The position numbers and the translations under genes were made by a program. This document shows positions 2,197-38,711 of a stretch of DNA of 64,000 bases, piece after piece. Source of the DNA: Escherichia phage FL20; the sequence record PP400781, one strand, 5' to 3'. The notes under the pieces were generated by a model, which saw only the letters and a list, made by a program, of their open reading frames with translations, did no database searches and was not told where the DNA came from. Positions within the stretch are counted from its first letter, which is position 1, and every line of letters starts with the position of its first letter.

Positions 2197-4197
2197 ATGA
2201 CTCTATTATCACCGGGTTTCGAAACGAAAGAAACTACTCTCTCCACTACCATTGTGCAATCTGCGACTGGTCGCGCTGCACTGGTAGGTAAATTCCAATG
2301 GGGTCCAGCTTTCCAGATTATTCAAGTAACTAATGAAGTTGAATTAGTTAATAAATTTGGTCAGCCGGATAATAACACCGCAGACTATTTCATGAGCGGG
2401 GCTAACTTCCTCCAGTATGGCAATGACCTGCGTGTTGTTCGTGTACTCAATAAAGAAAAAGCAAAAAACGCAACCGCACTGGCTGGTAACGTCGAGTTTG
2501 AAATCACAAACGAAGGTTCAAACTATGAAGTAGGCGATACCATCAAGATTAAACATAACCGTCAAGATATTGAAACGGCTGGTAAAGTAACTAAAGTTGA
2601 TGGTGATGGTAAAGTTAAGGGCGTATTTATCCCAACTGGTAAAATTATCGCTCACGCTAAAGCAATCGGTGTATATCCAGAACTTGATGGCGGTTGGACG
2701 GCAGAGTTCACTTCTTCGTCAGGTAACGGTAGTGCGGCGCTGTCAGTAACTAAAATTGTTACTGATTCCGGTCTTCTGTTAACGGATCTGGAAACTTCCC
2801 GCGCCAATATCACAAATCAGACTTTCTTGACTAAACTCCAGAAGTATGATATGCCAGCGGTAAGCGCGATCTATGCTGGTGAGATTGGCAACTCTCTGGA
2901 AGTGGAAATTCTGGCACGTAGCGCGTTTAAGAACACTGCACCGGATCTGACCATGTATCCTTATGGTGGCGAGCGCACCGCAGCACGCAACCTGATTCCA
3001 TATGCACCGCAGAATGATAATCAATATGCATTTATTGTTCGTCGCGATGGTGTTGTGGTAGAATCCTATGTACTGTCTACTCTGAAAGGGGATAAAGACG
3101 TATACGGCAATTCTATCTATATGGACGACTTCTTTGCTCGTGGTTCTAGCCAGTACATCTATGCAACCGCTCAAGGGTGGGTAGATGGTTTCAGTGGTAT
3201 TATCTCTCTTGCTGGTGGTGTTTCTGCTAACGAAGCAACGACTGCTGGTGTTGGTGCTGATCCGTTCATCGGTGCGATGATGCAAGGTTGGGATCTGTTT
3301 GCTGAACGAGAATCTATTCACGTAAACCTGTTGATCGCTGGTGCATGTGCTGGCGAAGGCGATGCGTTCTCTACCGTACAGAAACATGCTGTTTCCATCG
3401 GTGATGAGCGTCAGGATTGCTTAGTAATGGTTTCTCCGCCGCGTAGCACTGTTGTTAATATTCCGGTGACTACCGCAATTGATAACCTGATTGCATGGCG
3501 CGAAGGTTCAGGAAACTATAATGAAAACAACATGAACATTAATACCACTTACGCGGTTATTGATGGTAACTACAAATATCAGTATGACAAATACAACGAC
3601 GTAAACCGTTGGGTTCCGTTGGCTGCTGATATTGCTGGTTTGTGCGCTCGTACTGATGCTGTATCCCAGCCGTGGATGAGTCCGGCAGGTTATAACCGTG
3701 GTCAGATCATGAACGTGGTTAAACTGGCAATTGAGCCTCGCAAGGCGCACCGCGATCGTCTGTATCAGGCCGCAATTAACCCGGTAATCGGTGCTGGTGG
3801 TGAAGGTTTTATCCTGATGGGTGATAAAACCGCTACGACTGTTCCTAGCCCGTTTGACCGCATTAACGTTCGTCGTCTGTTTAACATGCTGAAAAAGAAT
3901 ATCGGCGATTCAAGCAAATACAAACTGTTTGAAAACAACGATAACTTTACTCGCGCTTCCTTCCGTATGGAGGTTTCGCAATATCTCAGCACGATTCGCT
4001 CTCTGGGTGGCATTTATGACTTCCGAGTACAATGCGACACCACGAATAACACGCCGGATGTAATTGATCGTAACGAATTTGTTGCTAGTATGTTCATCAA
4101 ACCAGCAAAATCGATCAACTATATCATGCTCAATTTCACTGCTGTTGCAACTGGTTCTGATTTTGACGAAATTATCGGTCCAGCCAACCAAGCATAA
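2197..4197 (+). CDS. 18: tail sheath protein gp18
   Basis: 666 aa; N-terminus MTLLSPGFETKE...QWGPAF and overall length match T4 gp18; synteny. Confidence 0.95.
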   Translation: MTLLSPGFETKETTLSTTIVQSATGRAALVGKFQWGPAFQIIQVTNEVELVNKFGQPDNNTADYFMSGANFLQYGNDLRVVRVLNKEKAKNATALAGNVEFEITNEGSNYEVGDTIKIKHNRQDIETAGKVTKVDGDGKVKGVFIPTGKIIAHAKAIGVYPELDGGWTAEFTSSSGNGSAALSVTKIVTDSGLLLTDLETSRANITNQTFLTKLQKYDMPAVSAIYAGEIGNSLEVEILARSAFKNTAPDLTMYPYGGERTAARNLIPYAPQNDNQYAFIVRRDGVVVESYVLSTLKGDKDVYGNSIYMDDFFARGSSQYIYATAQGWVDGFSGIISLAGGVSANEATTAGVGADPFIGAMMQGWDLFAERESIHVNLLIAGACAGEGDAFSTVQKHAVSIGDERQDCLVMVSPPRSTVVNIPVTTAIDNLIAWREGSGNYNENNMNINTTYAVIDGNYKYQYDKYNDVNRWVPLAADIAGLCARTDAVSQPWMSPAGYNRGQIMNVVKLAIEPRKAHRDRLYQAAINPVIGAGGEGFILMGDKTATTVPSPFDRINVRRLFNMLKKNIGDSSKYKLFENNDNFTRASFRMEVSQYLSTIRSLGGIYDFRVQCDTTNNTPDVIDRNEFVASMFIKPAKSINYIMLNFTAVATGSDFDEIIGPANQA

Positions 4198-4823: not shown

Positions 4824-6389
4824 ATGTTTAGTAGATTAAAAATGCTTGCGCGTTGGGCTGATTTTGACAACGACAAATACGAAGAACAAATTAAAGATAA
4901 AGCAGAGTCTATCGCCGCACCTAAAAACAATGATGGTGCTACGGAAGTAGAAATTAATGATAATTTACCTGCTAGCGCGTGGAACTCTCTTACCCAGCAA
5001 TTTTACAGCACCGACCAGAAAATCAGCACAACTAAGCAATTAGTTAACACATATCGCGGTTTGATGAATAACCATGAAGTCGAAAACGCTGTACAAAATA
5101 TCGTTAACGATGCGATTGTATTTGAAGAAGGTCATGAAGTTGTTTCATTAAATCTTGAGGCGACTGGCTTTAGTGAATCTGTAAAAGAGCGCATTCATGA
5201 AGAATTTAAAGATCTTTTAAACACTATCCAGTTTGATAGGCGCGGTCAGGATATGTTCCGTCGCTGGTATGTCGATTCGCGTATTTTCTTCCATAAAATC
5301 ATCGGCAAAAATCCAAAAGATGGTATCGTAGAATTACGCCAGCTTGACCCACGTAATCTTGAATACGTTCGAGAGATCATTACAGAAGACACACCGGAAG
5401 GTAAAATTTATAAAGCAACGAAAGAATATTTCATTTACACTGTAGGCAATAGCTCTTATTGCGCAGGTGGTCAAGTATTCTCTCCTAATAGTCGCGTTAA
5501 AATCCCGCGTAGTGCTATTACATACGCTCACAGCGGCTTGATGGATTGCGATGATAAATATATCATTGGTTATTTGCATCGGGCTGTTAAGCCAGCAAAC
5601 CAGCTTAAATTGTTGGAAGACGCAATGGTCGTTTATCGTATCACGCGTGCACCGGAACGCCGAGTGTTCTTTATTGATACCGGAAACATGAACAACCGCA
5701 AGGCTGCACAGCACATGAACTCAGTGGCACAGTCTTTTAAAAACCGCGTTGTTTATGATGCATCGACTGGTAAACTTAAAAACCAGCAAGCAAATCTATC
5801 AATGACAGAGGACTACTGGTTACAGCGTCGAGATGGTAAAGCAATCACCGACGTTACTACTTTACCCGGTGCATCCGGTATGAGTGATATCGATGATATT
5901 CGCTACTTTAACCGTAAATTGTATGAAGCGTTGCGTGTACCATTGTCACGCAGTAATCTCTCCGATGCTAATATGGTGATCGGTGGTGACGGTTCAGAAA
6001 TTACTCGCGATGAGTTGGAATTTTCGAAATTCATTAGAACTCTGCAATCACAGTTTTCGGAAGTATTGCGCGATCCTCTGAAATATAATCTGATTCTCAA
6101 AAATGTAATTACGGAAGACGATTGGGATCGTGAAATAAATAATATCAAGGTGGTTTTCCATCGGGACTCTTATTATACAGAAGTTAAAGACGCGGAAATT
6201 TTAGAACGTCGAATCGGTCTAATCGAACGTATTACACCTTACATTGGTAAATATTTCTCTAACCAGACAGTGATGCGTGACATTCTGAAATATACCGATG
6301 ACCAGATGGACACCGAGAAGAAACAGATCGAAGAAGAAGCGAACGATCCGCGCTTTAAACAAACTCCCGATGAAATAGAGGATTTTTAA
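4824..6389 (+). CDS. 20: portal vertex protein gp20
   Basis: 521 aa; synteny after gene 19; length matches T4 gp20. Confidence 0.9.
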   Translation: MFSRLKMLARWADFDNDKYEEQIKDKAESIAAPKNNDGATEVEINDNLPASAWNSLTQQFYSTDQKISTTKQLVNTYRGLMNNHEVENAVQNIVNDAIVFEEGHEVVSLNLEATGFSESVKERIHEEFKDLLNTIQFDRRGQDMFRRWYVDSRIFFHKIIGKNPKDGIVELRQLDPRNLEYVREIITEDTPEGKIYKATKEYFIYTVGNSSYCAGGQVFSPNSRVKIPRSAITYAHSGLMDCDDKYIIGYLHRAVKPANQLKLLEDAMVVYRITRAPERRVFFIDTGNMNNRKAAQHMNSVAQSFKNRVVYDASTGKLKNQQANLSMTEDYWLQRRDGKAITDVTTLPGASGMSDIDDIRYFNRKLYEALRVPLSRSNLSDANMVIGGDGSEITRDELEFSKFIRTLQSQFSEVLRDPLKYNLILKNVITEDDWDREINNIKVVFHRDSYYTEVKDAEILERRIGLIERITPYIGKYFSNQTVMRDILKYTDDQMDTEKKQIEEEANDPRFKQTPDEIEDF

Positions 6390-27082: not shown

Positions 27083-27107
27083 AGGCGGGGATAATCCCCG
27101 CCTTTTT
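27083..27107. terminator. bidirectional rho-independent terminator between gene 54 and the minus-strand accessory block (approximate)
   Basis: Stem aggcgggg/ccccgcct with ATAAT loop, A-tract 5' and T-tract 3'. Confidence 0.7.
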
Positions 27108-27591
27108 ATTTTGCTAAATCATTGCAATATTTTAGTGCCTTAGTTTGAAATTCTGCGCTGTTAAGTTCTTCATAACGGTCATAATCACCGTTTAATGCTG
27201 CCTTTCTTGCTTCTTGCTCTATCTGCATGTCAGACATGATAATACAGCGATCCCGTGCTTTCATCTTCTCAAGTTGTATAGACTCTTCTTTCTGCTTGCG
27301 CAATTCTTCTTGACGCTTCTTTTCTTCTCGTGCTTTCTCTTCCCGCGCTTCTTTGATTGCATCCTTGAACATCTGCGTTTGTGGTGCTAAACCAACTTTA
27401 ACTCGATCTACGTCTCGACGTTCCATTTTAGAAATAAAGCATGATTCGATCTGATCATCACTTGCATATGCTGTTTTACATTCACGAAGCAAGAAAACCG
27501 GATCTGATTTAGCATTCATCATAGCTTCCATGTTGGCACAACCAGTAAGCATGAATGCAGCCGCAAGACCAATCAGTTTAATCATTTTCAT
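27106..27591 (-). CDS. putative lipoprotein
   Basis: N-terminal signal peptide with lipobox LTGC (MKMIKLIGLAAAFMLTGC); charged coiled-coil-like C-terminal half. Confidence 0.6.
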   Translation of the reverse strand: MKMIKLIGLAAAFMLTGCANMEAMMNAKSDPVFLLRECKTAYASDDQIESCFISKMERRDVDRVKVGLAPQTQMFKDAIKEAREEKAREEKKRQEELRKQKEESIQLEKMKARDRCIIMSDMQIEQEARKAALNGDYDRYEELNSAEFQTKALKYCNDLAK

Positions 27592-28412
27592 TTAGTCACC
27601 TCACCGAAAATTGTAAATTGTCTACGATTCTCATCGCCGAAAGATTCTACTACGTCGTTTACCTTGACGCAAGTCCCGCGCGGTAAAATTACTTCACATT
27701 CGCAAGGATTCCATGCAATTGACCCAACAACAAAACCTTTATGATCTTTTACGTCAATTACCCATGATACATTACAAGAATGTTGCATCTTTCCGGTCAT
27801 TGATTCATATCGATTCTCACAATAAAGGCTAGTGCTGTTTGATAGCCATCCTCCAAAGATGATCGGTGTCATGCTGGTAGATACAAAGTTTTTAAAGGTA
27901 AACTCCTTATATTCAATGATACGCTCTATTGTCTGAATGTCAAGATGTTGACCGCGATAAAGAGTACCGTTTAACTTTTCGGTTTTATCCATGACGCAAT
28001 CCATCAAATCGACAATCTCTGATATCTCATCGGTCATGTCTTCTTCCCCTAAGAGAGCACCATTTACCCATTCGTATTGTTCAGATACATAATCACAGAT
28101 TGCATTATATTCTGCTGGTGTTATGTTGTTATGTTTGTAATGTTTGAATACATTATCTCCAAAGTCTTCGGAGTGTACTTCATACATCACATTAATGATT
28201 TTCTTGACAAATCCATAATCTTGTGTCTCACGCTCAAGGAAGCGGATAACCTTCACATAATCATCAAAGTTAATCTGATCACTGATCATCTCAGTGATCA
28301 TGTAACCATTAATCCCCTCAATGTCATATGTTTCGATGTAATTATCCATACGTTCCATCATTGATTCGCGTGATTCTTCTGAAATACGAAAATCCTGTAA
28401 TTTCTTGAACAT
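27588..28412 (-). CDS. ADP-ribosyltransferase, Alt/Mod-family paralog (274 aa)
   Basis: R-S-ExE catalytic signature: LYRGQ ... FKNFVSTS ... CECEVILPRG, parallel to the Alt C-terminal domain encoded just upstream. Confidence 0.7.
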   Translation of the reverse strand: MFKKLQDFRISEESRESMMERMDNYIETYDIEGINGYMITEMISDQINFDDYVKVIRFLERETQDYGFVKKIINVMYEVHSEDFGDNVFKHYKHNNITPAEYNAICDYVSEQYEWVNGALLGEEDMTDEISEIVDLMDCVMDKTEKLNGTLYRGQHLDIQTIERIIEYKEFTFKNFVSTSMTPIIFGGWLSNSTSLYCENRYESMTGKMQHSCNVSWVIDVKDHKGFVVGSIAWNPCECEVILPRGTCVKVNDVVESFGDENRRQFTIFGEVTK

Positions 28413-28490: not shown

Positions 28491-30542
28491 TTACATTTTA
28501 AATTTATCTGGCATTGCGTCTACAGATACCAGATCAGCGATAAGCTGACGTAGAGTTGCCTTATCTGCTTTCTTACGTTCGGTTTTAGCTTCGGTAATAA
28601 AGCTGGAGAAAGACAGGTCAGAAGCAGGTTTAATAACACCTTCACGGATGAATGCATCACCGTCCGCGATCATCTCGCCAGATTCTTGTAATGCTGCCAG
28701 TTCATTTTTGTTCATAATATGTGCCTCAATGTAATAAGTTTCTTGTGAATCCGTCGATGCCGTAGCACGAGTTACCGTATCAAAGGATAACACAACACCG
28801 CGAGGAAGTAAAATCTCGCATTCTTTGTAAGCAAATGCTTTGTTACCTACTGGCAAGACAGGGATGTTTTCCGCGCCAGCAATGGAGAAAGCAACATTAG
28901 CGCCACCTTCACCACGAGAGCCAGCCATAGAATCAACACCAGCAACGGCACTAGCCACGTTTGCATTCCAGCCGCCAAAAATGTTAGGTGCAAGGGAAGT
29001 GCTCACATAGTTTTTAAAGTAAAACGCTTTTTGCTTACGTGCAGTTTCCCACATTTGCGACCGGAAGTCCATACCACGATACAGAATAGTACCCGGATCA
29101 AGTTTAACTCCATAGTTGGAGAAGGCATTATCCAGTGCATCACACATCTTGACCAATTCTTCTGGATCTGCGATGCCTTCAAACTCTTCCAGCTTACGGT
29201 CGGTTAGGAAGTTGTTCATATTGATGTATGCTGCATCGGCATATTCGCTCAACACAAAACCTTCCGCGCCCGGCAGATCAAGATCAATATCTGCCATCAT
29301 TTCACCCATGTTGCTAGCAATTGCTTCAAACATACCGGAAGCAACATTACGTAGGGCATCGGTTTTAATCTGGGTGATGTGACTACGCAGCATTTCAGCT
29401 TTTACATCTGCTGGCATAGACTGGTCTACTCGATCCATTGCCAGGGCGGTGATCTTGTTTTCGAATACTTCCTCGCTCATGATTTCTTTTAAGCGTTTGA
29501 TTGATGCTGCGATAACTTCCGCAGACAATGGATCATATTGATCCTGAACTTTTACCAGTTCGCTTACTGCGTATTTTGCATCGGCTTCGCTTTCAAAAAT
29601 AGTACGCATGAAACCATAGCGAGTGATAATATCACTTGTCCAGTCATTCAGAGAACGAGCGGTTGAACGTTCTAAGGCTTGACGGTCAATCAGAGTATTA
29701 AACTGTTTCTTAGGTTCTGCTTCGGTGATATCTTCTTCCGGTTTAAGATTAATTTTTTCTGGATGATTCACATAGTCGCTGTTATAGGTCGCTTGAGTTT
29801 TCAGCATTTCTTCTTTAGTCAAACGAGATTTAGCCGCTACGCGTTGTTCTGCTTCCGCGTTTCGTTCTTCTTCTGACACAAGACTAGCCGCATATGCCTC
29901 ATCTTTAGTCAGAGATTCACCAGTAGCCTTAGATACCCAGCGATCACCTAAATCACTTTCTACTTTAGTGAACAAGGATTCATCAAGTTTAATCCCTTTA
30001 ATCTTATCAATCGCCATCCCGCGACGCTTGACAACAACTAAAGCGATCTTTTTGCTGGTCATTACTTCCTGCTGGAATACTTCAAACTTCGGTGTACGAC
30101 GCACCAAACGCTCTATAACGCGCTTAACCAGTTCGGTCTTACCTTTCATGCGGGATACGTTAAAACGGAACATAACAGCGTCTAATTGCGCTTTACGGGC
30201 TGTTTCCATAACCACATCAAAAGCACTTGACATAACTGCAATCGGGTTATCGCCTAGACCATTTTTAAGCTGTACAATACGACCGCTTTTGTTCATTTCG
30301 CACAGTACAACATGTGCGGTCTTGTCACCCATACGAATGATTTTAGGTGTTTTGTTGGTGAAGTTACAAAGACGGACAATCACATCTTTATCGCGTGTCT
30401 GTACTGCAAAAAGCTGTTTAGGATTCTGCTTAGGCTTTAAGCACTGTACCGGGGCAATACTACCAAAGTTTTCTTCCTCTTCCGTCAACAGCCATTTCTC
30501 GAAAGATTCAATCATTAGATCGTCGATTTCTAAGTTAAACAT
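28491..30542 (-). CDS. alt: Alt ADP-ribosyltransferase (injected internal head protein)
   Basis: 683 aa, T4 Alt is about 682 aa; C-terminal ART motifs LYRGMDF ... FKNYVSTS ... ECEILLPRG; synteny (after gene 54). Confidence 0.85.
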   Translation of the reverse strand: MFNLEIDDLMIESFEKWLLTEEEENFGSIAPVQCLKPKQNPKQLFAVQTRDKDVIVRLCNFTNKTPKIIRMGDKTAHVVLCEMNKSGRIVQLKNGLGDNPIAVMSSAFDVVMETARKAQLDAVMFRFNVSRMKGKTELVKRVIERLVRRTPKFEVFQQEVMTSKKIALVVVKRRGMAIDKIKGIKLDESLFTKVESDLGDRWVSKATGESLTKDEAYAASLVSEEERNAEAEQRVAAKSRLTKEEMLKTQATYNSDYVNHPEKINLKPEEDITEAEPKKQFNTLIDRQALERSTARSLNDWTSDIITRYGFMRTIFESEADAKYAVSELVKVQDQYDPLSAEVIAASIKRLKEIMSEEVFENKITALAMDRVDQSMPADVKAEMLRSHITQIKTDALRNVASGMFEAIASNMGEMMADIDLDLPGAEGFVLSEYADAAYINMNNFLTDRKLEEFEGIADPEELVKMCDALDNAFSNYGVKLDPGTILYRGMDFRSQMWETARKQKAFYFKNYVSTSLAPNIFGGWNANVASAVAGVDSMAGSRGEGGANVAFSIAGAENIPVLPVGNKAFAYKECEILLPRGVVLSFDTVTRATASTDSQETYYIEAHIMNKNELAALQESGEMIADGDAFIREGVIKPASDLSFSSFITEAKTERKKADKATLRQLIADLVSVDAMPDKFKM

Positions 30543-31143: not shown

Positions 31144-31662
31144 TTAGTTATTTTTTAATTGCTCATCTTGCAATAGGGCAATCACATGCTGGCGATGTTC
31201 TTCCGATTGAGGCACACCGAAAAAGTTTGTTTTGTAGAAATACTCTAATCGGTCTTCTCGTGTGCTCTCTTCCATCATGATCGCGGGTAGTCCGAGATTT
31301 CGGAAACGTCGCTTTTCTGCTGGCGTAAAATCACTGTAATACAACATAGAATCATCATTACAAGCAATGCTAAACTCATCCTTCATAAAGGAGAATATTG
31401 CGTTTAAACGCTGTTTACCGTCCACGATTTCGATCTCATAGCGAGAGCCATCATCAATCTTAGCCATTGCGATAGCACCAACCGGAAAATCATTAATCAG
31501 GTTTTCGATAAACATACGTTTGTTTTCGGTGTCCCATACTAAAGGACGCTGATAATCTGGGTTCATGTTGATATAGCCATCTTCTAACCATGCATCATAA
31601 ACAGAGATGACAAAGTTTTTAGTATTGGTATAGTAACGGCGTTTAGGCGTTAAACGGTTCAT
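31144..31662 (-). CDS. DUF262 / ParB-like (GmrSD N-terminal domain-like) protein
   Basis: Track ORF 31144-31698; Met13 start (RBS AGGAG) gives 172 aa; motifs YQRPLVW...LI..FPVG and the DGQQR-type box IVDGKQRL. Confidence 0.7.
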   Translation of the reverse strand: MNRLTPKRRYYTNTKNFVISVYDAWLEDGYINMNPDYQRPLVWDTENKRMFIENLINDFPVGAIAMAKIDDGSRYEIEIVDGKQRLNAIFSFMKDEFSIACNDDSMLYYSDFTPAEKRRFRNLGLPAIMMEESTREDRLEYFYKTNFFGVPQSEEHRQHVIALLQDEQLKNN

Positions 31663-31663
31663 G

Positions 31664-31996
31664 TTATAGTCTCCTGAATGGATCATCACGTAAATCAATA
31701 TCTTTTAAGAACTCATCCCATGAATGCCGGATATTGTTCTTAATTCTCCAGATAAGCGCAGGGATTGAACGCTCTCCCATCTGGAAGTATGGATCATATG
31801 ATCCGTATGCCCAATATGCTACTACAATTCCACAATCAGCGCAATAGTATTCTATTTCACTTGCTGGCGACCAAAGTCCATCAATATGATCGGTGATCTT
31901 GCTTTCGATGTTATGGCTATGACAATCAGGGCAACGGATGCAATGACCTTGTTTATCGTAATTTGACGTTAGCGAATACTTAAACAATCTCATCAT
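31664..31996 (-). CDS. zinc-ribbon protein (two CxxC pairs)
   Basis: 110 aa; CIRCPDC ... CADCG; translationally coupled within the operon. Confidence 0.6.
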   Translation of the reverse strand: MMRLFKYSLTSNYDKQGHCIRCPDCHSHNIESKITDHIDGLWSPASEIEYYCADCGIVVAYWAYGSYDPYFQMGERSIPALIWRIKNNIRHSWDEFLKDIDLRDDPFRRL

Positions 31997-33280: not shown

Positions 33281-33315
33281 AATTATTTGTTAATTTCTGG
33301 TGCGTTGCTAGGATA

Positions 33316-33450
33316 TTAACCTTCTTTAACTCCGAGGTATTTCGCAACCATCCCTACAATCTTCTGTGCTACTACAATGTCAAATTTCAGATAATCTTCG
33401 CCGTGGGTTTCAATGATATATGCTTCACATGCTGCTTTAGTCTCGAACAT
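33316..33450 (-). CDS. small protein (44 aa), nonsense-truncated paralog of ORF 36566-36733 (approximate ends)
   Basis: MFETKAACEAYIIETHGEDYLKFDIVVAQKIVGMVAKYLGVKEG; the paralog continues ...YYPSNAPEINK, and here that tail is still readable after a TAC to TAA change. Confidence 0.45.
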   Translation of the reverse strand: MFETKAACEAYIIETHGEDYLKFDIVVAQKIVGMVAKYLGVKEG

Positions 33451-33526
33451 TTTTATTCTCCTATTTCGTTTCGTTATGTGTGTATTATAGGGGATCTCCC
33501 GATCCCCGTCAACAACTTTTTTAAAA
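33451..33526 (-). promoter_or_regulatory. PeSL cassette copy 4 (GGGGATCtcccGATCCCC palindrome)
   Basis: As copy 2; -35 variant TTGACG. Confidence 0.7.
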
Positions 33527-34242: not shown

Positions 34243-34267
34243 AAAAAAGCCGACACTAAGGTCGGCT
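34243..34267 (-). terminator. rho-independent terminator after gene 34275-34583 (approximate)
   Basis: Stem agccgac/gtcggct with T-tract on minus strand. Confidence 0.6.
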
Positions 34268-34274
34268 AATAAAA

Positions 34275-34583
34275 TCATTTAGACAAATAATCATTCAGTG
34301 CAATCCGGTTGGCGTATGCTGGTGTTACGTCAATCGCAATCACTTTAACGCGTGCTTTCTTGCGACCTGGGTTTTCTCGTAACCAGTGCTCATGACCGTG
34401 AACATTTTTATACTGCGATGCTTCTTCGAAGGTACGGATCGGACCTGGATAATCTGCGTAAAGGATCTCTAGGTCTTCGGTGATGTAAAAATATACATCA
34501 TAATTACTGTTCTCTAGTTTAAGCAGAGACTTTCGGAACATTGGGAGATTTTCGCGGGTAAATTCAAAGATATTATCTTTCAT
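34275..34583 (-). CDS. small early protein, HxHW-family member a (102 aa)
   Basis: C-terminal motif HGHEHW ... VKVIAIDV shared with five paralogs. Confidence 0.6.
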   Translation of the reverse strand: MKDNIFEFTRENLPMFRKSLLKLENSNYDVYFYITEDLEILYADYPGPIRTFEEASQYKNVHGHEHWLRENPGRKKARVKVIAIDVTPAYANRIALNDYLSK

Positions 34584-34636
34584 AGTATTATCCTCAATAG
34601 TTGGATGAAAAGGGGTGGGGCTTAACGCCCCGTATA

Positions 34637-34924
34637 TTAAAACAGTCCTTCCTGTACACCGTAGTAGAGTTCATCGCTGATAATTTCATTAATGCGACGG
34701 TGTGCATATTCCTGATTTGCGAAGTTATCAGCAAGTTCTACTTTAGTTTCGCCGTCATGAGTCCATTTAGTGATAACTTTACCATCTGCAAATTTGAAGT
34801 TGAACTCTTTAGCTACCGCATCGCGTACCAGACGTGCGAACTTGTTGTTACGGATTGCATTATCGGTTTCGTGTGCAGCGTGAGCGAATTTGTTAACTTT
34901 CAGAGTGATAGTAATGTATGCCAT
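34637..34924 (-). CDS. hypothetical protein (95 aa), PeSL-driven
   Basis: ORF directly after PeSL copy 7. Confidence 0.55.
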   Translation of the reverse strand: MAYITITLKVNKFAHAAHETDNAIRNNKFARLVRDAVAKEFNFKFADGKVITKWTHDGETKVELADNFANQEYAHRRINEIISDELYYGVQEGLF

Positions 34925-35005
34925 AATTTGATTCTCCTAGTTAGAAAGTGTATCTCGTTTCGATGGGGATATTATGCTATACACCCGATCTTATGTCAAC
35001 ACTTT
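34925..35005 (-). promoter_or_regulatory. PeSL cassette copy 7
   Basis: Conserved cassette layout. Confidence 0.65.
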
Positions 35006-35284
35006 TTATAAAATAATTTTTTGATATTTTTCTATGATGTTTGTGTAGGTCACGTCAACCGCTAGCACCGTTGCTTCGAATCCACCGTTTAACCAATGGC
35101 TATGATCATGATCGTGAAAGAAACCTAGACCAGTACGAAGACCTTCTTTATATTCGGCGCGTACATTTAGATCATCATCGATAAACAGATAAAACCATGA
35201 ATTTTTACTAGGATTGATGATACAACCTTTCAGATTAGGGAGAATATCACGACTAAGAATAAACTTATCACCTACTTTGAGCAT
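35006..35284 (-). CDS. small early protein, HxHW-family member b (92 aa from Met31)
   Basis: Track ORF 35006-35374; internal ATG with RBS GAGGAA; motif HDHDHSHW ... TVLAVDV. Confidence 0.55.
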   Translation of the reverse strand: MLKVGDKFILSRDILPNLKGCIINPSKNSWFYLFIDDDLNVRAEYKEGLRTGLGFFHDHDHSHWLNGGFEATVLAVDVTYTNIIEKYQKIIL

Positions 35285-35298
35285 AATATTTTCCTCAC

Positions 35299-35607
35299 TT
35301 ATAAAGTTTGACCGTTGTTTTTCGCGTAATGCTGAATGCGTGCTTGATCTGCTTCCGCTGGTGATAGATTCCATGCAACCACTACAACTTCTGACGCATC
35401 GTCATCCGTTTTTGATACCCAATGATTGTGATTCATACAGTTATTTGCTATCGAGTGAGAAAATGATTGCGTCACTGGAGACGTATAATCATAGTAACGG
35501 ATTTTCAGATTTTCATCAACGTACAAGTAGATCGTATACGGCTTATATTCAGTAACCAGTAACAGACAGTTACGCAATTCTGGGAAAATCTTTTTAGTTA
35601 ATTTCAT
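35299..35607 (-). CDS. small early protein, HxHW-family member c (about 102 aa from Met28)
   Basis: Track ORF 35299-35688; motif NHNHW ... VVVVAWN. Confidence 0.55.
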   Translation of the reverse strand: MKLTKKIFPELRNCLLLVTEYKPYTIYLYVDENLKIRYYDYTSPVTQSFSHSIANNCMNHNHWVSKTDDDASEVVVVAWNLSPAEADQARIQHYAKNNGQTL

Positions 35608-35608
35608 T

Positions 35609-35848
35609 TTATAATCCTCGGTCGCGGCTATAGTACACGGTACGCCATACAATTTCATGTTTCGTGTCGCTCCAGCACACGATCTCATTTACTCTTAAAT
35701 CTTTGTTATCAACAAAAGATGAACATTGTGACGCTTCTTTCATCATTTTATCTGCTGTTTTCTCATCAAATACAGCACAGATTTCTTTATACACTCGATA
35801 ATCTTTGAATTGACTCTGAATACCCATAATTAACACCATTCCAACCAA
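35609..35848 (-). CDS. hypothetical protein, member 1 of a two-gene paralog pair
   Basis: Shares block FK.YK.Y ... A.KMM.(E/D)AS.C.SF with ORF 35787-36050; start uncertain. Confidence 0.5.
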   Translation of the reverse strand: MVGMVLIMGIQSQFKDYRVYKEICAVFDEKTADKMMKEASQCSSFVDNKDLRVNEIVCWSDTKHEIVWRTVYYSRDRGL

Positions 35849-36050
35849 TTGTTTTTGAGAAAACGTTTATCCACTGTTGAGTGTAGCATGTTTCTTTCCA
35901 TGATACAATACGAGTAGAATAATGGTTTTTGTTTCCAGAAAAGGACGGGCATTTTGATGCATCTTCCATCATCTTTTCGGCGAACTCTGGTGCGTATACT
36001 CGCAGGATCTGTTGATATGCTTTGTATTCTTTAAATTTGCTCATAATCAT
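35787..36050 (-). CDS. hypothetical protein, member 2 of the paralog pair
   Basis: See ORF 35609-35848. Confidence 0.5.
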   Translation of the reverse strand: MIMSKFKEYKAYQQILRVYAPEFAEKMMEDASKCPSFSGNKNHYSTRIVSWKETCYTQQWINVFSKTIGWNGVNYGYSESIQRLSSV

Positions 36051-36309
36051 TCACTACCTTATCAGCTTCTTTTGTTGTTTTTACATCAACTGCGATAACT
36101 CGTAAAGGTTCGTCATGGTTCCACCAGTGGTCATGAATATCAGCTTGTGATTTATCACAAAAGGAATCACGAATATCATTTTTACATTTATAGCTAATGT
36201 GACCGTCATAGTCAACATAAAGGTAATTATCGAAAATCGGCGTTTTTAAGATCATACCGAAAAATCTTTCTTTGTGTGTCTTATCCAGTGTTGCAGTAAT
36301 TCGCATCAT
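36031..36309 (-). CDS. small early protein, HxHW-family member d (92 aa)
   Basis: Motif IHDHWW ... LRVIAVDV. Confidence 0.6.
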   Translation of the reverse strand: MMRITATLDKTHKERFFGMILKTPIFDNYLYVDYDGHISYKCKNDIRDSFCDKSQADIHDHWWNHDEPLRVIAVDVKTTKEADKVVNDYEQI

Positions 36310-36321
36310 AATATATTCCTC

Positions 36322-36501
36322 TTAGAAAGGGATGGTCATTTCTTGAGCTTGTACATTCTCGTTAGGATTAAACTTCATCCAGCCGATATTGTCTACCAGC
36401 ATATGCACATTTTTATCATATCCTACGTGGGTAGTCAATACTGTATGTGCTTTACCTTCAATGATGAGTTCCATGTACTTCTGAACTTCGATAGCTTTCA
36501 T
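36322..36501 (-). CDS. small hypothetical protein (59 aa), PeSL-driven
   Basis: Ends placed via the plus-strand track ORF frame; RBS GGAGAA; N-terminus MKAIEVQKYM. Confidence 0.45.
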   Translation of the reverse strand: MKAIEVQKYMELIIEGKAHTVLTTHVGYDKNVHMLVDNIGWMKFNPNENVQAQEMTIPF

Positions 36502-36565
36502 TTTGATTCTCCGTTTGTTGTCTTGATGGGAGTATCTTACTACTCCCTTTAATCATTGTCAACTA
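36502..36565 (-). promoter_or_regulatory. PeSL cassette copy 8 (palindrome gggagta-tcttac-tactccc spanning the -10)
   Basis: Conserved cassette layout. Confidence 0.7.
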
Positions 36566-36733
36566 TTATTTGTTAATTTCCGGTGCGTTGCTCGGATAGT
36601 AACCTTCTTTAACACCTAGATATTTTGCAACCATTCCGGTGATCTTCTGTGCTACTACGATATCGAATTTCAGGTAGTCTTCACCGTGGTTTGCTACAAT
36701 GTATGCTTCGCATTCTGCTTTAGTCTCGAACAT
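36566..36733 (-). CDS. small protein (55 aa), intact paralog of ORF 33316-33450
   Basis: Track ORF 36566-36769; true start is Met13 (MFETKAECEAY...); the upstream 12 codons are PeSL sequence read in frame. Confidence 0.55.
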   Translation of the reverse strand: MFETKAECEAYIVANHGEDYLKFDIVVAQKITGMVAKYLGVKEGYYPSNAPEINK

Positions 36734-36803
36734 TTTTGATTCTCCTATATCTCGTTGGTATGTGTGCATTATAGGGGATCACCGATCCCCTGTCAACAAC
36801 TTT
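36734..36803 (-). promoter_or_regulatory. PeSL cassette copy 9 (GGGGATCaccGATCCCC palindrome)
   Basis: As copy 2. Confidence 0.75.
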
Positions 36804-37106
36804 TTATTCTTCGTCTTTATCTTTATATGCGTATTTCATAAATTTGTCTGCTACTTCGTCCGCGTTTTCAGGTTCTACATCTGACGCTAGGACAACAGCT
36901 AGTTCGGTTTTGTCGTTTCCATCATACCAATGATTATGAGTGTCTTTTTCTTCGATATAAAACGAATCATTTGGAGTTGGGCGACAATATACGTCTAAAT
37001 TCCCATCGATATAAAAGATCCAATCCGAATACAAAATGATTGTTTTAGCCAGATTTTTATTGTCTCTTACAAAAGGTTCCGCGACAAATAGCTTAGTTTG
37101 TTCCAT
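36804..37106 (-). CDS. small early protein, HxHW-family member e (100 aa from Met20)
   Basis: Track ORF 36804-37163; motif THNHW ... LAVVLASDV. Confidence 0.55.
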   Translation of the reverse strand: MEQTKLFVAEPFVRDNKNLAKTIILYSDWIFYIDGNLDVYCRPTPNDSFYIEEKDTHNHWYDGNDKTELAVVLASDVEPENADEVADKFMKYAYKDKDEE

Positions 37107-37122
37107 AGTAATTTCCTCAAAA

Positions 37123-37314
37123 TTATACAGCTTCGTAAACTTCCCAATGTCCAACACCAGCACGCTTAACGAAAAGGTTTTCTTTGATGTTATTCATAAA
37201 CGTCTGGATGGATTTAATGCGGTTGGAAGGTTTCCAGTCTTCGTTGGCATTGCGGCGATACATCATAACATTACCAGTTCGCTTATATTCAGCAACCATT
37301 TTAAGACCACACAT
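37123..37314 (-). CDS. hypothetical protein (63 aa)
   Basis: ORF with RBS GAGGA 7 nt upstream of the start. Confidence 0.5.
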   Translation of the reverse strand: MCGLKMVAEYKRTGNVMMYRRNANEDWKPSNRIKSIQTFMNNIKENLFVKRAGVGHWEVYEAV

Positions 37315-37370
37315 AATATTATCCTCAATTTGTGGGAGAGTATTACCCTCCCGATTATTGTTATACTACA

Positions 37371-37691
37371 TTACGCAAAATGGCGTGTCAATGCTTCTTT
37401 TGCTGTTCCGCTAAGATTCTCGATCTCTCCTGGCATAACATCAACCGCAAGAACTTCTACAACATCCTCTGATCCTAACCAGTGAGTATGACCTTTGTAG
37501 AACTTGATAACCAGACTACCTTCCTCATCCCATTTAACGCTATCGCTAGCCCACCACACATCACCGTCGATAAAGTTGATGTAAAGCACACTACGCCACA
37601 TTGAATCGGTTACTTTCAATATTGCGCCTTTCATCTCTTCCACGGTGTGGTCTTCCATTTTGAAGACCTCGCCTACTTGAACTTTTGCCAT
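37371..37691 (-). CDS. small early protein, HxHW-family member f (106 aa from Met31)
   Basis: Track ORF 37371-37781; motif GHTHW ... VEVLAVDV. Confidence 0.55.
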   Translation of the reverse strand: MAKVQVGEVFKMEDHTVEEMKGAILKVTDSMWRSVLYINFIDGDVWWASDSVKWDEEGSLVIKFYKGHTHWLGSEDVVEVLAVDVMPGEIENLSGTAKEALTRHFA

Positions 37692-37692
37692 G

Positions 37693-37959
37693 TTACATGC
37701 TCCGAATATGTTTAGCTGCATCTTCCAGTTCGTCGATAGTGACACTGTGTGCCAGTAAGTGTACTGGTTGTGGTTCTTCACCTTCCATAGTATTGATCAG
37801 ATGACCGTTTCCTGGGTGGAATGTATCGTTGCCGTTCCAAATAGCATACACATCATCTTCTGTTACGTAGATAATAAGTCCAATCGGTGATTCTGGTAAT
37901 TGAAAAATTTTACCCACTGCATCTTTGCGATTGTCTACGATATCTTTTACTGTCTTCAT
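37693..37959 (-). CDS. hypothetical protein (88 aa)
   Basis: ORF tightly packed upstream of member f. Confidence 0.5.
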   Translation of the reverse strand: MKTVKDIVDNRKDAVGKIFQLPESPIGLIIYVTEDDVYAIWNGNDTFHPGNGHLINTMEGEEPQPVHLLAHSVTIDELEDAAKHIRSM

Positions 37960-38158: not shown

Positions 38159-38234
38159 TTTTGATTCTCCTAGTTCGTTTCGGTATGTGTGTATTATAGG
38201 GGATCGGTGATCCCCTGTCAACAACTTTTCTGAA
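38159..38234 (-). promoter_or_regulatory. PeSL cassette copy 10 (GGGGATCggtGATCCCC palindrome)
   Basis: As copy 2. Confidence 0.75.
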
Positions 38235-38711
38235 TTATTTTTCTTGATGCTCGCGCTCGTACTTTTCGAAATAAAATTCTACTGGCTGGTCATGAATTGA
38301 CAGCAAGCCAAAGCGTTTAGCCGCTCGCAATCCCATATTGCGCTGAATGTACTTCTGGAAGTTCTCGCGTATACACTTACGCCAGTATTCTAAGCCCATA
38401 CAGCTTTTATAAAGATTGCATTGCACACACGCCGGATTCATGTTATCAAGTATATCATGCTCCGGTTTATGCATTCCTACAACCTTATACTTCCACGATC
38501 CATCATCATTACGGGCAATTCGTCCATTTTCATCATAGACTACCTTTGAGCGTCGCAATACTGGTTTGATGTGGTCTGCGTGCCAGCGATCCCCTAGTTC
38601 CTCGCCACAATAGGCGCAACGTCCACCATATTTCATTTTCAGGATCTGGCGTTGCTCTTTCTTTGACAATTTTTTAGGTTTAGGGGCTTTCGCCCCTTCA
38701 TTATCACACAT
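38235..38711 (-). CDS. HNH homing endonuclease
   Basis: 158 aa; CAYCGEEL ... HADHIKP ... N ... CVQCN (Cys-x2-Cys / His-Asp-His / Cys-x2-Cys HNH signature); inserted next to the ligase gene. Confidence 0.7.
   Translation of the reverse strand: MCDNEGAKAPKPKKLSKKEQRQILKMKYGGRCAYCGEELGDRWHADHIKPVLRRSKVVYDENGRIARNDDGSWKYKVVGMHKPEHDILDNMNPACVQCNLYKSCMGLEYWRKCIRENFQKYIQRNMGLRAAKRFGLLSIHDQPVEFYFEKYEREHQEK

Follow-up and report, generated by a model that had tools for sequence, protein, structure and literature searches.

The small genes in the hyperplastic regions of T4-like phages are usually viewed as unrelated orphans that come and go. The closest described system is hyperplastic region HPR3, the stretch of small open reading frames (ORFs) between alt and gene 30 that was studied in phages RB49 and phi1, where mini-circles mediated by promoter-early stem-loops (PeSLs) and shuffling of ORFans were demonstrated, and where the ORFans were described as non-essential, early and plastic and were treated as unrelated database orphans (Arbiol et al., 2010; PMC2839356). 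The locus addressed in this study is the same one, with the same PeSLs, in a 64,000-nucleotide (nt) stretch of Escherichia phage FL20 (sequence record PP400781), referred to below as the window, and concerns seven small genes, designated p1 to p7, which are treated here as one family instead of as unrelated orphans. The locus, its plasticity and its promoters are already published, and the genes themselves are already in the databases as hypothetical proteins; what appear to be new are the membership of all seven genes in one family, the Tyr...His-x-His-Trp...Asp-Val signature that they share, and their fixed order across the genus. A text search of PMC2839356 returned no mention of paralogs or of the ORF numbers of p1–p6, and literature searches on paralogs, duplication, anti-defence and early genes of Krischvirus and RB49 returned nothing on p1–p7. 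Like the PeSL-associated genes, these genes lie among repeated promoter and stem-loop cassettes in a hyperplastic region, but presence/absence polymorphism was not found in the six canonical genes, only p7 being polymorphic (present in 3 of 10 Krischvirus loci). Whereas ORFans 192 and 210 are shuffled, the six slots are fixed across the genus.

A further point of comparison is the internal-protein (IP) locus of the T-even phages, the textbook diversified anti-restriction array, in which IPI*, for example, acts against GmrSD. The likeness lies in a cluster of small, diverged, lineage-variable accessory genes within a T4-type genome. The IP proteins, however, are late, are packaged in the head and share a common N-terminal capsid-targeting sequence, whereas the p1–p7 family has early promoters, no such leader, and a gene content that is stable rather than polymorphic. 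A functional analogy, drawn from general knowledge, can also be made with the small 'sponge' and inhibitor proteins Tad1, Tad2, Acb2 and Acr, with which no significant similarity in sequence or fold was seen; families of this type are usually single-copy, as against the seven-gene set described here. We rate the family as a multigene set, specific to its lineage, that encodes small early proteins of accessory function within a hyperplastic region of the T4 type.

The window is assigned to a genome of Krischvirus (RB49-like), T4-like phages of Escherichia coli, and approximately 6 kb around the cluster, in which all genes lie on the minus strand, shares 94–97% identity with Escherichia phages FL37, kaaroe and RB49 as well as with about 55 further genomes of the genus. 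An earlier note on this DNA, made without database searches, had proposed a six-member paralogous family of small proteins here, and all six ORFs were located where it had placed them. These canonical members are p1 (34275–34583; 102 amino acids (aa), reading HGHEHW ... VIAIDV), p2 (35006–35284; 92 aa, HDHDHSHW ... VLAVDV), p3 (35299–35607; 102 aa, NHNHW ... VVAWNL), p4 (36031–36309; 92 aa, IHDHWW ... VIAVDV), p5 (36804–37106; 100 aa, THNHW ... VLASDV, with an acidic tail) and p6 (37371–37691; 106 aa, GHTHW ... VLAVDV), which are orthologous in that order to RB49 ORFs 197, 199, 200, 203, 206 and 208, all annotated 'hypothetical'. Five of the six canonical ORFs are preceded by a GAGGA-type Shine-Dalgarno sequence and p6 by a weaker one, cggag. 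The proteins of the family are soluble and neutral to acidic, with isoelectric points (pI) of 4.4–6.8, the lowest value belonging to p5.

The six proteins align along their entire length with only 23–29% identity, and their relationship was examined by leave-one-out tests, in which a profile built from the remaining members was compared with the 984 six-frame ORFs of the window. Every member was recovered by the profile that lacked it, with expectation values (E) of 5.5e-14 for p1, 5.4e-9 for p2, 2e-15 for p3, 1.7e-7 for p4, 6e-10 for p5 and 4.8e-6 for p6, and the best ORF from outside the family had an E of at least 0.01, which bears out the proposed paralogy far beyond chance. In the complete RB49 assembly the family profile finds exactly six members, all inside the cluster, and not one of the other 2,585 six-frame ORFs of at least 30 codons there contains the string HxHW. 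The PHROGs database spreads the six paralogs over five groups (9345, 17255, 15972, 15965 and 16486), all of 'unknown function', with one group matched per paralog at E 1e-48 to 1e-70 (4.5e-48 for p1 and PHROG 9345), yet phrog_9345 also cross-matches all six paralogs, through weak cross-hits with E of 1.5e-5 to 4e-3.

The motifs named in the earlier note stand in register across p1–p6, although its description of them holds only in part. With residues numbered as in p1, H64, H66, W67, V81 and A83 are invariant among the six proteins of the window. Of the motif described as His-rich, H66 and W67 are universal, whereas a general richness in His is not seen and H64 is lost in one allele class of p5; of the second motif, (V/I)A(V/I)DV, V81 and A83 are invariant in the six, while the Asp of 'DV' may be D, N or G. 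Information in the family profile is concentrated at Y33 (3.0 bits), H64 (2.6), H66 (4.0) and W67 (5.3), and the only other positions that rise above the profile background are hydrophobic strand positions together with D35 and D/N85. Several paralogs carry additional His, Asp or Glu residues around the motif, as in HDHDHSHW of p2, HGHEHW of p1 and IHDHWWNHD of p4. Across the family, the losses of H64 and of D85 do not co-occur consistently. The segments before and after HxHW differ in length between paralogs and are far more divergent between paralogs than between orthologues, for which overall identity is 81–98% as against the 23–29% given above, but in p1 and p6 these flanking segments show small indels among orthologues too.

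The count of six was correct for the canonical members but missed a diverged seventh, p7 (37693–37959, minus strand; 88 aa), in which GNGHL replaces HxHW and LLAHSV replaces VLAVDV, and whose stop codon lies 1 nt ahead of the start codon of p6. Although p7 looks like the family on visual inspection, the six-member profile fails to detect it among the ORFs of the window, p7 matches no PHROG, and an alignment of p7 as a single sequence with the family profile (hhalign) gave a probability of only 26%. A search with p7 returned four relatives, which read ...GLIIYVxExDVYAIW...GNxHLI...LLA(V/T/R)DV..ELEDAA, and a profile of p7 with these four relatives aligned with the family profile at a probability of 94% (E 1.4e-7) over 69 colinear columns. 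The BFVD model of an 88-aa protein of phage JSE, which from its length and accession order we take to be the p7 orthologue, matched the model of p1 with a Foldseek probability of 0.98. Because of this profile-profile match and this structural match, p7 is assigned to the family as a diverged branch that has kept the second His and has lost the first His and the Trp. In Salmonella enterica, homologues of p7 with 66% identity occur singly where lambdoid prophages end on the chromosome-proximal side (L019–L022, 8001–8294), and the Salmonella prophage compared with the locus in the window has nothing besides p7 in common with it. This distribution resembles the transfer of a single gene between virulent T4-like and temperate phages.

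The family is confined to Krischvirus among 50,697 deposited phage genomes, where it was found in 56 records. A HMMER search of 1.84 billion protein-cluster representatives gave 21 matches, the genuine ones being orthologues from Krischvirus and a few diverged proteins from metagenomes; two long proteins (P0101 and P0102) were rejected as artefacts of summed weak repeats, with at most 10.8 bits per repeat and an i-Evalue of at least 4e4. Word-indexed searches gave nothing beyond further Krischvirus orthologues, and scans of IMG/VR with two diverged members gave no relatives. The diverged relatives include two members encoded by an uncultured T4-like phage (20-kb contig), where they stand between gene 30 and alt, the matching position, and five family domains on a 2.1-kb metagenomic contig (L002, SRR8048117_15661). 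Because the latter carries p6-like, p4-like and p3-like genes in the same order as the window, at 36–50% identity to the corresponding paralogs, the duplications that gave rise to the family are placed before the origin of the genus Krischvirus. The same contig encodes a natural fusion of two family domains in a 203-aa protein (P0088, 820–1431), which hints that two domains may act jointly; its AlphaFold2 (AF2) model, made without an alignment, was unusable (predicted local distance difference test score, pLDDT, 34). A conserved partner gene was also sought, but the ORFs beside the members on distant contigs are common genes of hyperplastic regions that are not consistently paired with the family.

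Within the genus, each of the ten sampled Krischvirus genomes has all six slots in an unchanged order, and median pairwise Nei-Gojobori ratios of non-synonymous to synonymous substitution (dN/dS) lie at 0.12–0.25 for every slot (0.23 for p1, 0.16 for p2, 0.25 for p3, 0.12 for p4, which is 92–100% identical across the ten genomes, and 0.17 for p6). These ratios therefore indicate that p1–p6 are protein-coding and under purifying selection. Some slots hold swapped alleles of the family. In JSE and KMB43, other alleles of the family occupy slot p2 (26% identical) and slot p3 (43% identical); p5 falls into two deep allele classes, with synonymous divergence (dS) of up to 1.24, and the allele found in RB49, FL37 and SFHK24 reads TSNHW...ESGV, without the first His and the Asp. 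An indel polymorphism of 6–10 residues affects the loop preceding the motif in p6. Individual slots thus exchange alleles on occasion, probably through recombination in this PeSL-rich region. In JSE (L010), p1 and p5 are split by frameshifts (2692–3080 and 5049–5343), and in phage kvi (P0069) p1 is truncated, which may be due to errors of sequencing in the older records or to genuine pseudogenes; in the second case, individual members would be dispensable.

The AF2 model of p1, made with the six-sequence alignment, reached a pLDDT of 82.6 and a predicted template modelling score of 0.78. It contains strands at residues 5–7, 19–23, 29–34, 40–45 and 78–84, short helices at 52–57 and 61–67, and a C-terminal helix at 88–101. 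The HxHW stretch is the least confident part of the model, with residues 59–62 below 50 and the 10-residue blocks across 51–70 averaging 63 and 65. The domain is predicted to be a small alpha+beta unit made up of four strands, a poorly ordered segment with HxHW, a fifth strand leading to the Asp/Asn-Val, and the C-terminal helix. No significant match of the p1 model to any solved fold was found. Searches of Pfam returned sub-threshold noise only (PROCT, TTL and Strep_his_triad) and those of NCBIfam likewise noise only, PADLOC returned no match, and a sequence search of the PDB returned a single match with an E of 0.41. The searches of PADLOC and of solved folds gave no significant match to known anti-defence proteins (Acr, Tad, Acb and Ocr-like).

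The best explanation of these observations, which is put forward tentatively, is that the genes encode small accessory proteins, made early, in which a metal or ligand site is shared and the loops are specific to each paralog. A common site that takes a divalent metal or a small ligand would be formed by Tyr33, His64, His66 and Trp67, along with Asp35 and Asp/Asn85, whose conservation is weak, and the variable loops flanking HxHW would give each paralog a separate specificity, as these flanks vary widely from paralog to paralog but far less among orthologues. The genes would then be non-redundant, non-essential early accessory factors whose products bind or sequester some component of the cell just after infection, in the service of host takeover or counter-defence, and would not be enzymes. 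A metal or ligand site is plausible, and a metal or a nucleotide-like ligand would be the most economical candidate because of the invariant His-Trp, the extra His, Asp and Glu residues near the motif, and the flexible loop; the low confidence of the motif loop in the p1 model would fit a loop that becomes ordered upon binding. Several points weigh against this proposal. No homology points to a ligand, a metal or a host target of the family, and we infer the spatial clustering of Y33, D35, H64, H66, W67 and D85 from the positions of strand ends, not from model coordinates. In the AF2 model HxHW is helical, which would turn residues i and i+2 to different sides. The RB49-type allele of p5 has Ser for H64 and Gly for D85, and with one His and no Trp in p7 any such site is not universal. 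The conservation of His and Trp could instead be structural or reflect a protein-protein contact, and the early expression of the family genes is read, on good grounds, from their promoters. A more specific form of the proposal, which we consider rather unlikely, is that the seven genes are a counter-defence sequestration family with a new fold, whose members would keep a metal or an immune signalling nucleotide in the Tyr/HxHW pocket, with the loops of each copy tuned to a different signal or effector.

The main rival, which takes up the likening, in the earlier note, of the array to those used by phages against host defences and which partly overlaps with the metal- or ligand-site proposal, is that the proteins are protein-protein inhibitors, each paralog blocking a different host defence or housekeeping protein, with HxHW serving as a structural or docking element. 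Small, soluble, neutral-to-acidic proteins would suit such a role in a hyperplastic region that also encodes Alt ADP-ribosyltransferases, a DNA methyltransferase and a GmrSD_N-domain protein, as would the strong loop differences between paralogs and the portability of one branch, p7, to the accessory regions of prophages. However, purifying selection and a fixed copy number are unlike the rapid gain and loss and the positive selection of arms-race arrays, PADLOC gave no match, and an invariant polar His-Trp pair at 20–30% identity between paralogs suits a shared chemistry better than a set of different protein targets, such that this reading is possible but doubtful. The same selection data contradict the view that the genes are functionless or selfish ORFan cargo hitch-hiking with PeSL cassettes. 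That view draws on the PeSL mini-circles and ORFan shuffling demonstrated in the region (PMC2839356) and on the frameshifted or truncated copies in JSE and kvi, yet dN/dS is low in all six slots, gene order is kept in all ten genomes, orthologues remain recognisable at 36–50% identity in distant uncultured relatives, and none of the six genes is flanked by two PeSLs; we give it hardly any credence.

Small metal-dependent enzymes, for instance an oligomeric hydrolase or phosphoesterase with a His-x-His centre, would be in keeping with HxH as a classic metal or catalytic motif, with the further His, Asp and Glu residues near it in p1, p2 and p4, and with the natural tandem fusion, which suggests that two domains can cooperate. 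The earlier note had likewise raised a small hydrolase beside a metal site, but a hydrolase is unlikely because too few residues are conserved (two His, one Trp and one Tyr strongly so, with no conserved general acid/base or third ligand) and because p7 and one allele class of p5 do without the first His. There is a superficial likeness of HGHEHWL and HDHDHSHWL to the HIT motif HxHxHxx, and of GHxHW to the cupin HxH. For HIT, however, H64 and H66 alone are conserved, the residues between them are polar (N, D, E, T or S), a third His occurs only in p1 and p2, and neither the Pfam profiles nor the HIT alpha+beta fold gave a match; for cupins, there is no conserved Glu or Gly at the needed spacing, five strands with helices are predicted, and no cupin match was obtained. 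The 2H phosphoesterases differ in that the family has one HxH per domain and no conserved Thr or Ser after the His, and Foldseek entries for 2H proteins had E above 1, and neither the HxHxDH motif nor the alpha-beta/beta-alpha sandwich of some 200 or more residues that mark metallo-beta-lactamases was found. With no match to these or to other Pfam or NCBIfam families or to any hydrolase or other enzyme fold, and since a set of six or seven isoenzymes, each some 95 residues long, would be out of the ordinary, enzymes of this kind seem distinctly improbable. The chances are equally slim that the proteins are regulators binding nucleic acid, the ribosome or RNA polymerase through a small KOW/SH3-like barrel. 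A database record names the p2-type orthologue P0070 'KOW2-KOW3 domains of Spt5', VGDxF...KGxI, a KOW-motif-like sequence, stands at the N-termini of p2 and p6, and the predicted order of four strands, insert and fifth strand resembles that of SH3-like barrels as generally known. The KOW-like N-terminus is, however, missing from p1, p3, p4 and p5, the proteins are neutral to acidic and not basic, no Pfam KOW match was obtained even at E of 1 or below, and no significant structural match to such a barrel was found.

The transcription signals of the cluster, all on the minus strand, are largely those of the PeSLs. Repeat families D1 and D3, with seven copies of 65–74 nt, correspond to the published PeSLs and are laid out as TTGACA and TATAAT hexamers 17 nt apart, with a GGGGATC...GATCCCC stem-loop in the spacer. 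The PeSL at 38193–38221 (12/12 consensus positions, D1 and D3) heads the unit ORF59 – p7 – p6, and a weaker promoter-like site at 37363–37391 (TTGACA-17-TAGTAT, 10/12), which overlaps the 3' end of p6 and lies outside the PeSL repeat family, is placed upstream of ORF63 (37123–37314) and p5 and may serve as their promoter. Directly downstream of p5 is the PeSL at 36768–36796 (12/12, D1/D3), with one small ORF, which is equivalent to PeSL206/205 of RB49; in a lacZ fusion that element gave approximately 13,000 Miller units and was very strong in RB49 (PMC2839356). The PeSL-type promoter at 36534–36562 (10/12, D1) heads the unit ORF59b – p4 – ORF87 – ORF76 – p3 – p2, and the PeSL at 34971–34999 (11/12; D1, 83% identical to the reference copy) heads ORF95 (34637–34924) – p1, directly after which stands a strong intrinsic terminator at 34248–34267 (AGCCGACCTTAGTGTCGGCT followed by TTTTTT). 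None of the genes p1–p6 is directly headed by a PeSL; they stand second or later in three or four operons. The claim that each is expressed early agrees with units headed by consensus sigma-70 (PeSL) promoters. Between ORF95 and p1, at 34595–34636 (minus strand), is a GC-rich hairpin, GGGGCGTTAAGCCCC, which falls within what appears to be a single operon and could be an attenuator or an element of RNA processing or stability.

Other duplications were observed among the small ORFs. Between p4 and p3 lies an unrelated tandem pair of paralogs (35609–35839 and 35787–36050, minus strand) with approximately 40% identity (E 2e-15) and the pattern MxxFK(D/E)Y+xY..., homologues of which adjoin family members on two distant contigs (L003 and L004). 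A recent duplication of 173 nt with 85% identity (33282–33454 and 36565–36737, minus strand) holds a PeSL and a small ORF, MFETKA(A/E)CEAYI... (44 versus 55 aa from an internal ATG; 89% identical), and resembles a PeSL-plus-ORF cassette that was copied within the region.

The order of genes flanking the cluster is that of the T4 layout 48-54-alt-30. The neighbours are, in order, gp48 and gp54 of the tail, two Alt-type ADP-ribosyltransferases, the GmrSD_N-domain protein and the DNA methyltransferase, followed by about 5.5 kb of small ORFs, an HNH endonuclease and the DNA ligase gp30. The adjacent ADP-ribosyltransferase genes (28491–30542 and 27588–28412, minus strand), which border the region on the tail side, encode a full-length Alt (683 aa) and a 274-aa ADPrib_exo_Tox protein, and after this pair comes a 161-aa ORF (27106–27591) with a lipoprotein-like leader (LTGC). 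Directly downstream of the DNA methyltransferase gene, a stand-alone phage protein of 184 aa (31144–31698, minus strand) has a GmrSD_N domain (DUF262, with a DGKQR motif; Pfam E 7e-20), a domain better known from the host restriction enzyme that attacks modified T-even DNA. On the other side, the HNH endonuclease gene (38235–38711, minus strand) stands between the ligase gene 30 and the hyperplastic region, and its start overlaps the last 8 nt of the ligase gene; most sampled genomes have the gene, although in some of their records the ORF is annotated only as hypothetical.

The grouping of these genes turns seven 'hypothetical proteins' into one testable target, and offers a clean case of ancient duplication and sub-functionalisation beside a region of cassette shuffling. 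Should the sequestration reading be true, the phage would carry a fixed multi-target 'sponge' array, and the presence of p7 in Salmonella prophages would mean that the module works outside T4-like phages too. If the shared site binds nothing of the kind, the genes would be an ordinary lineage-specific accessory family, whereas if it binds a metal or a signalling molecule, they would constitute a new early module for host manipulation or counter-defence.

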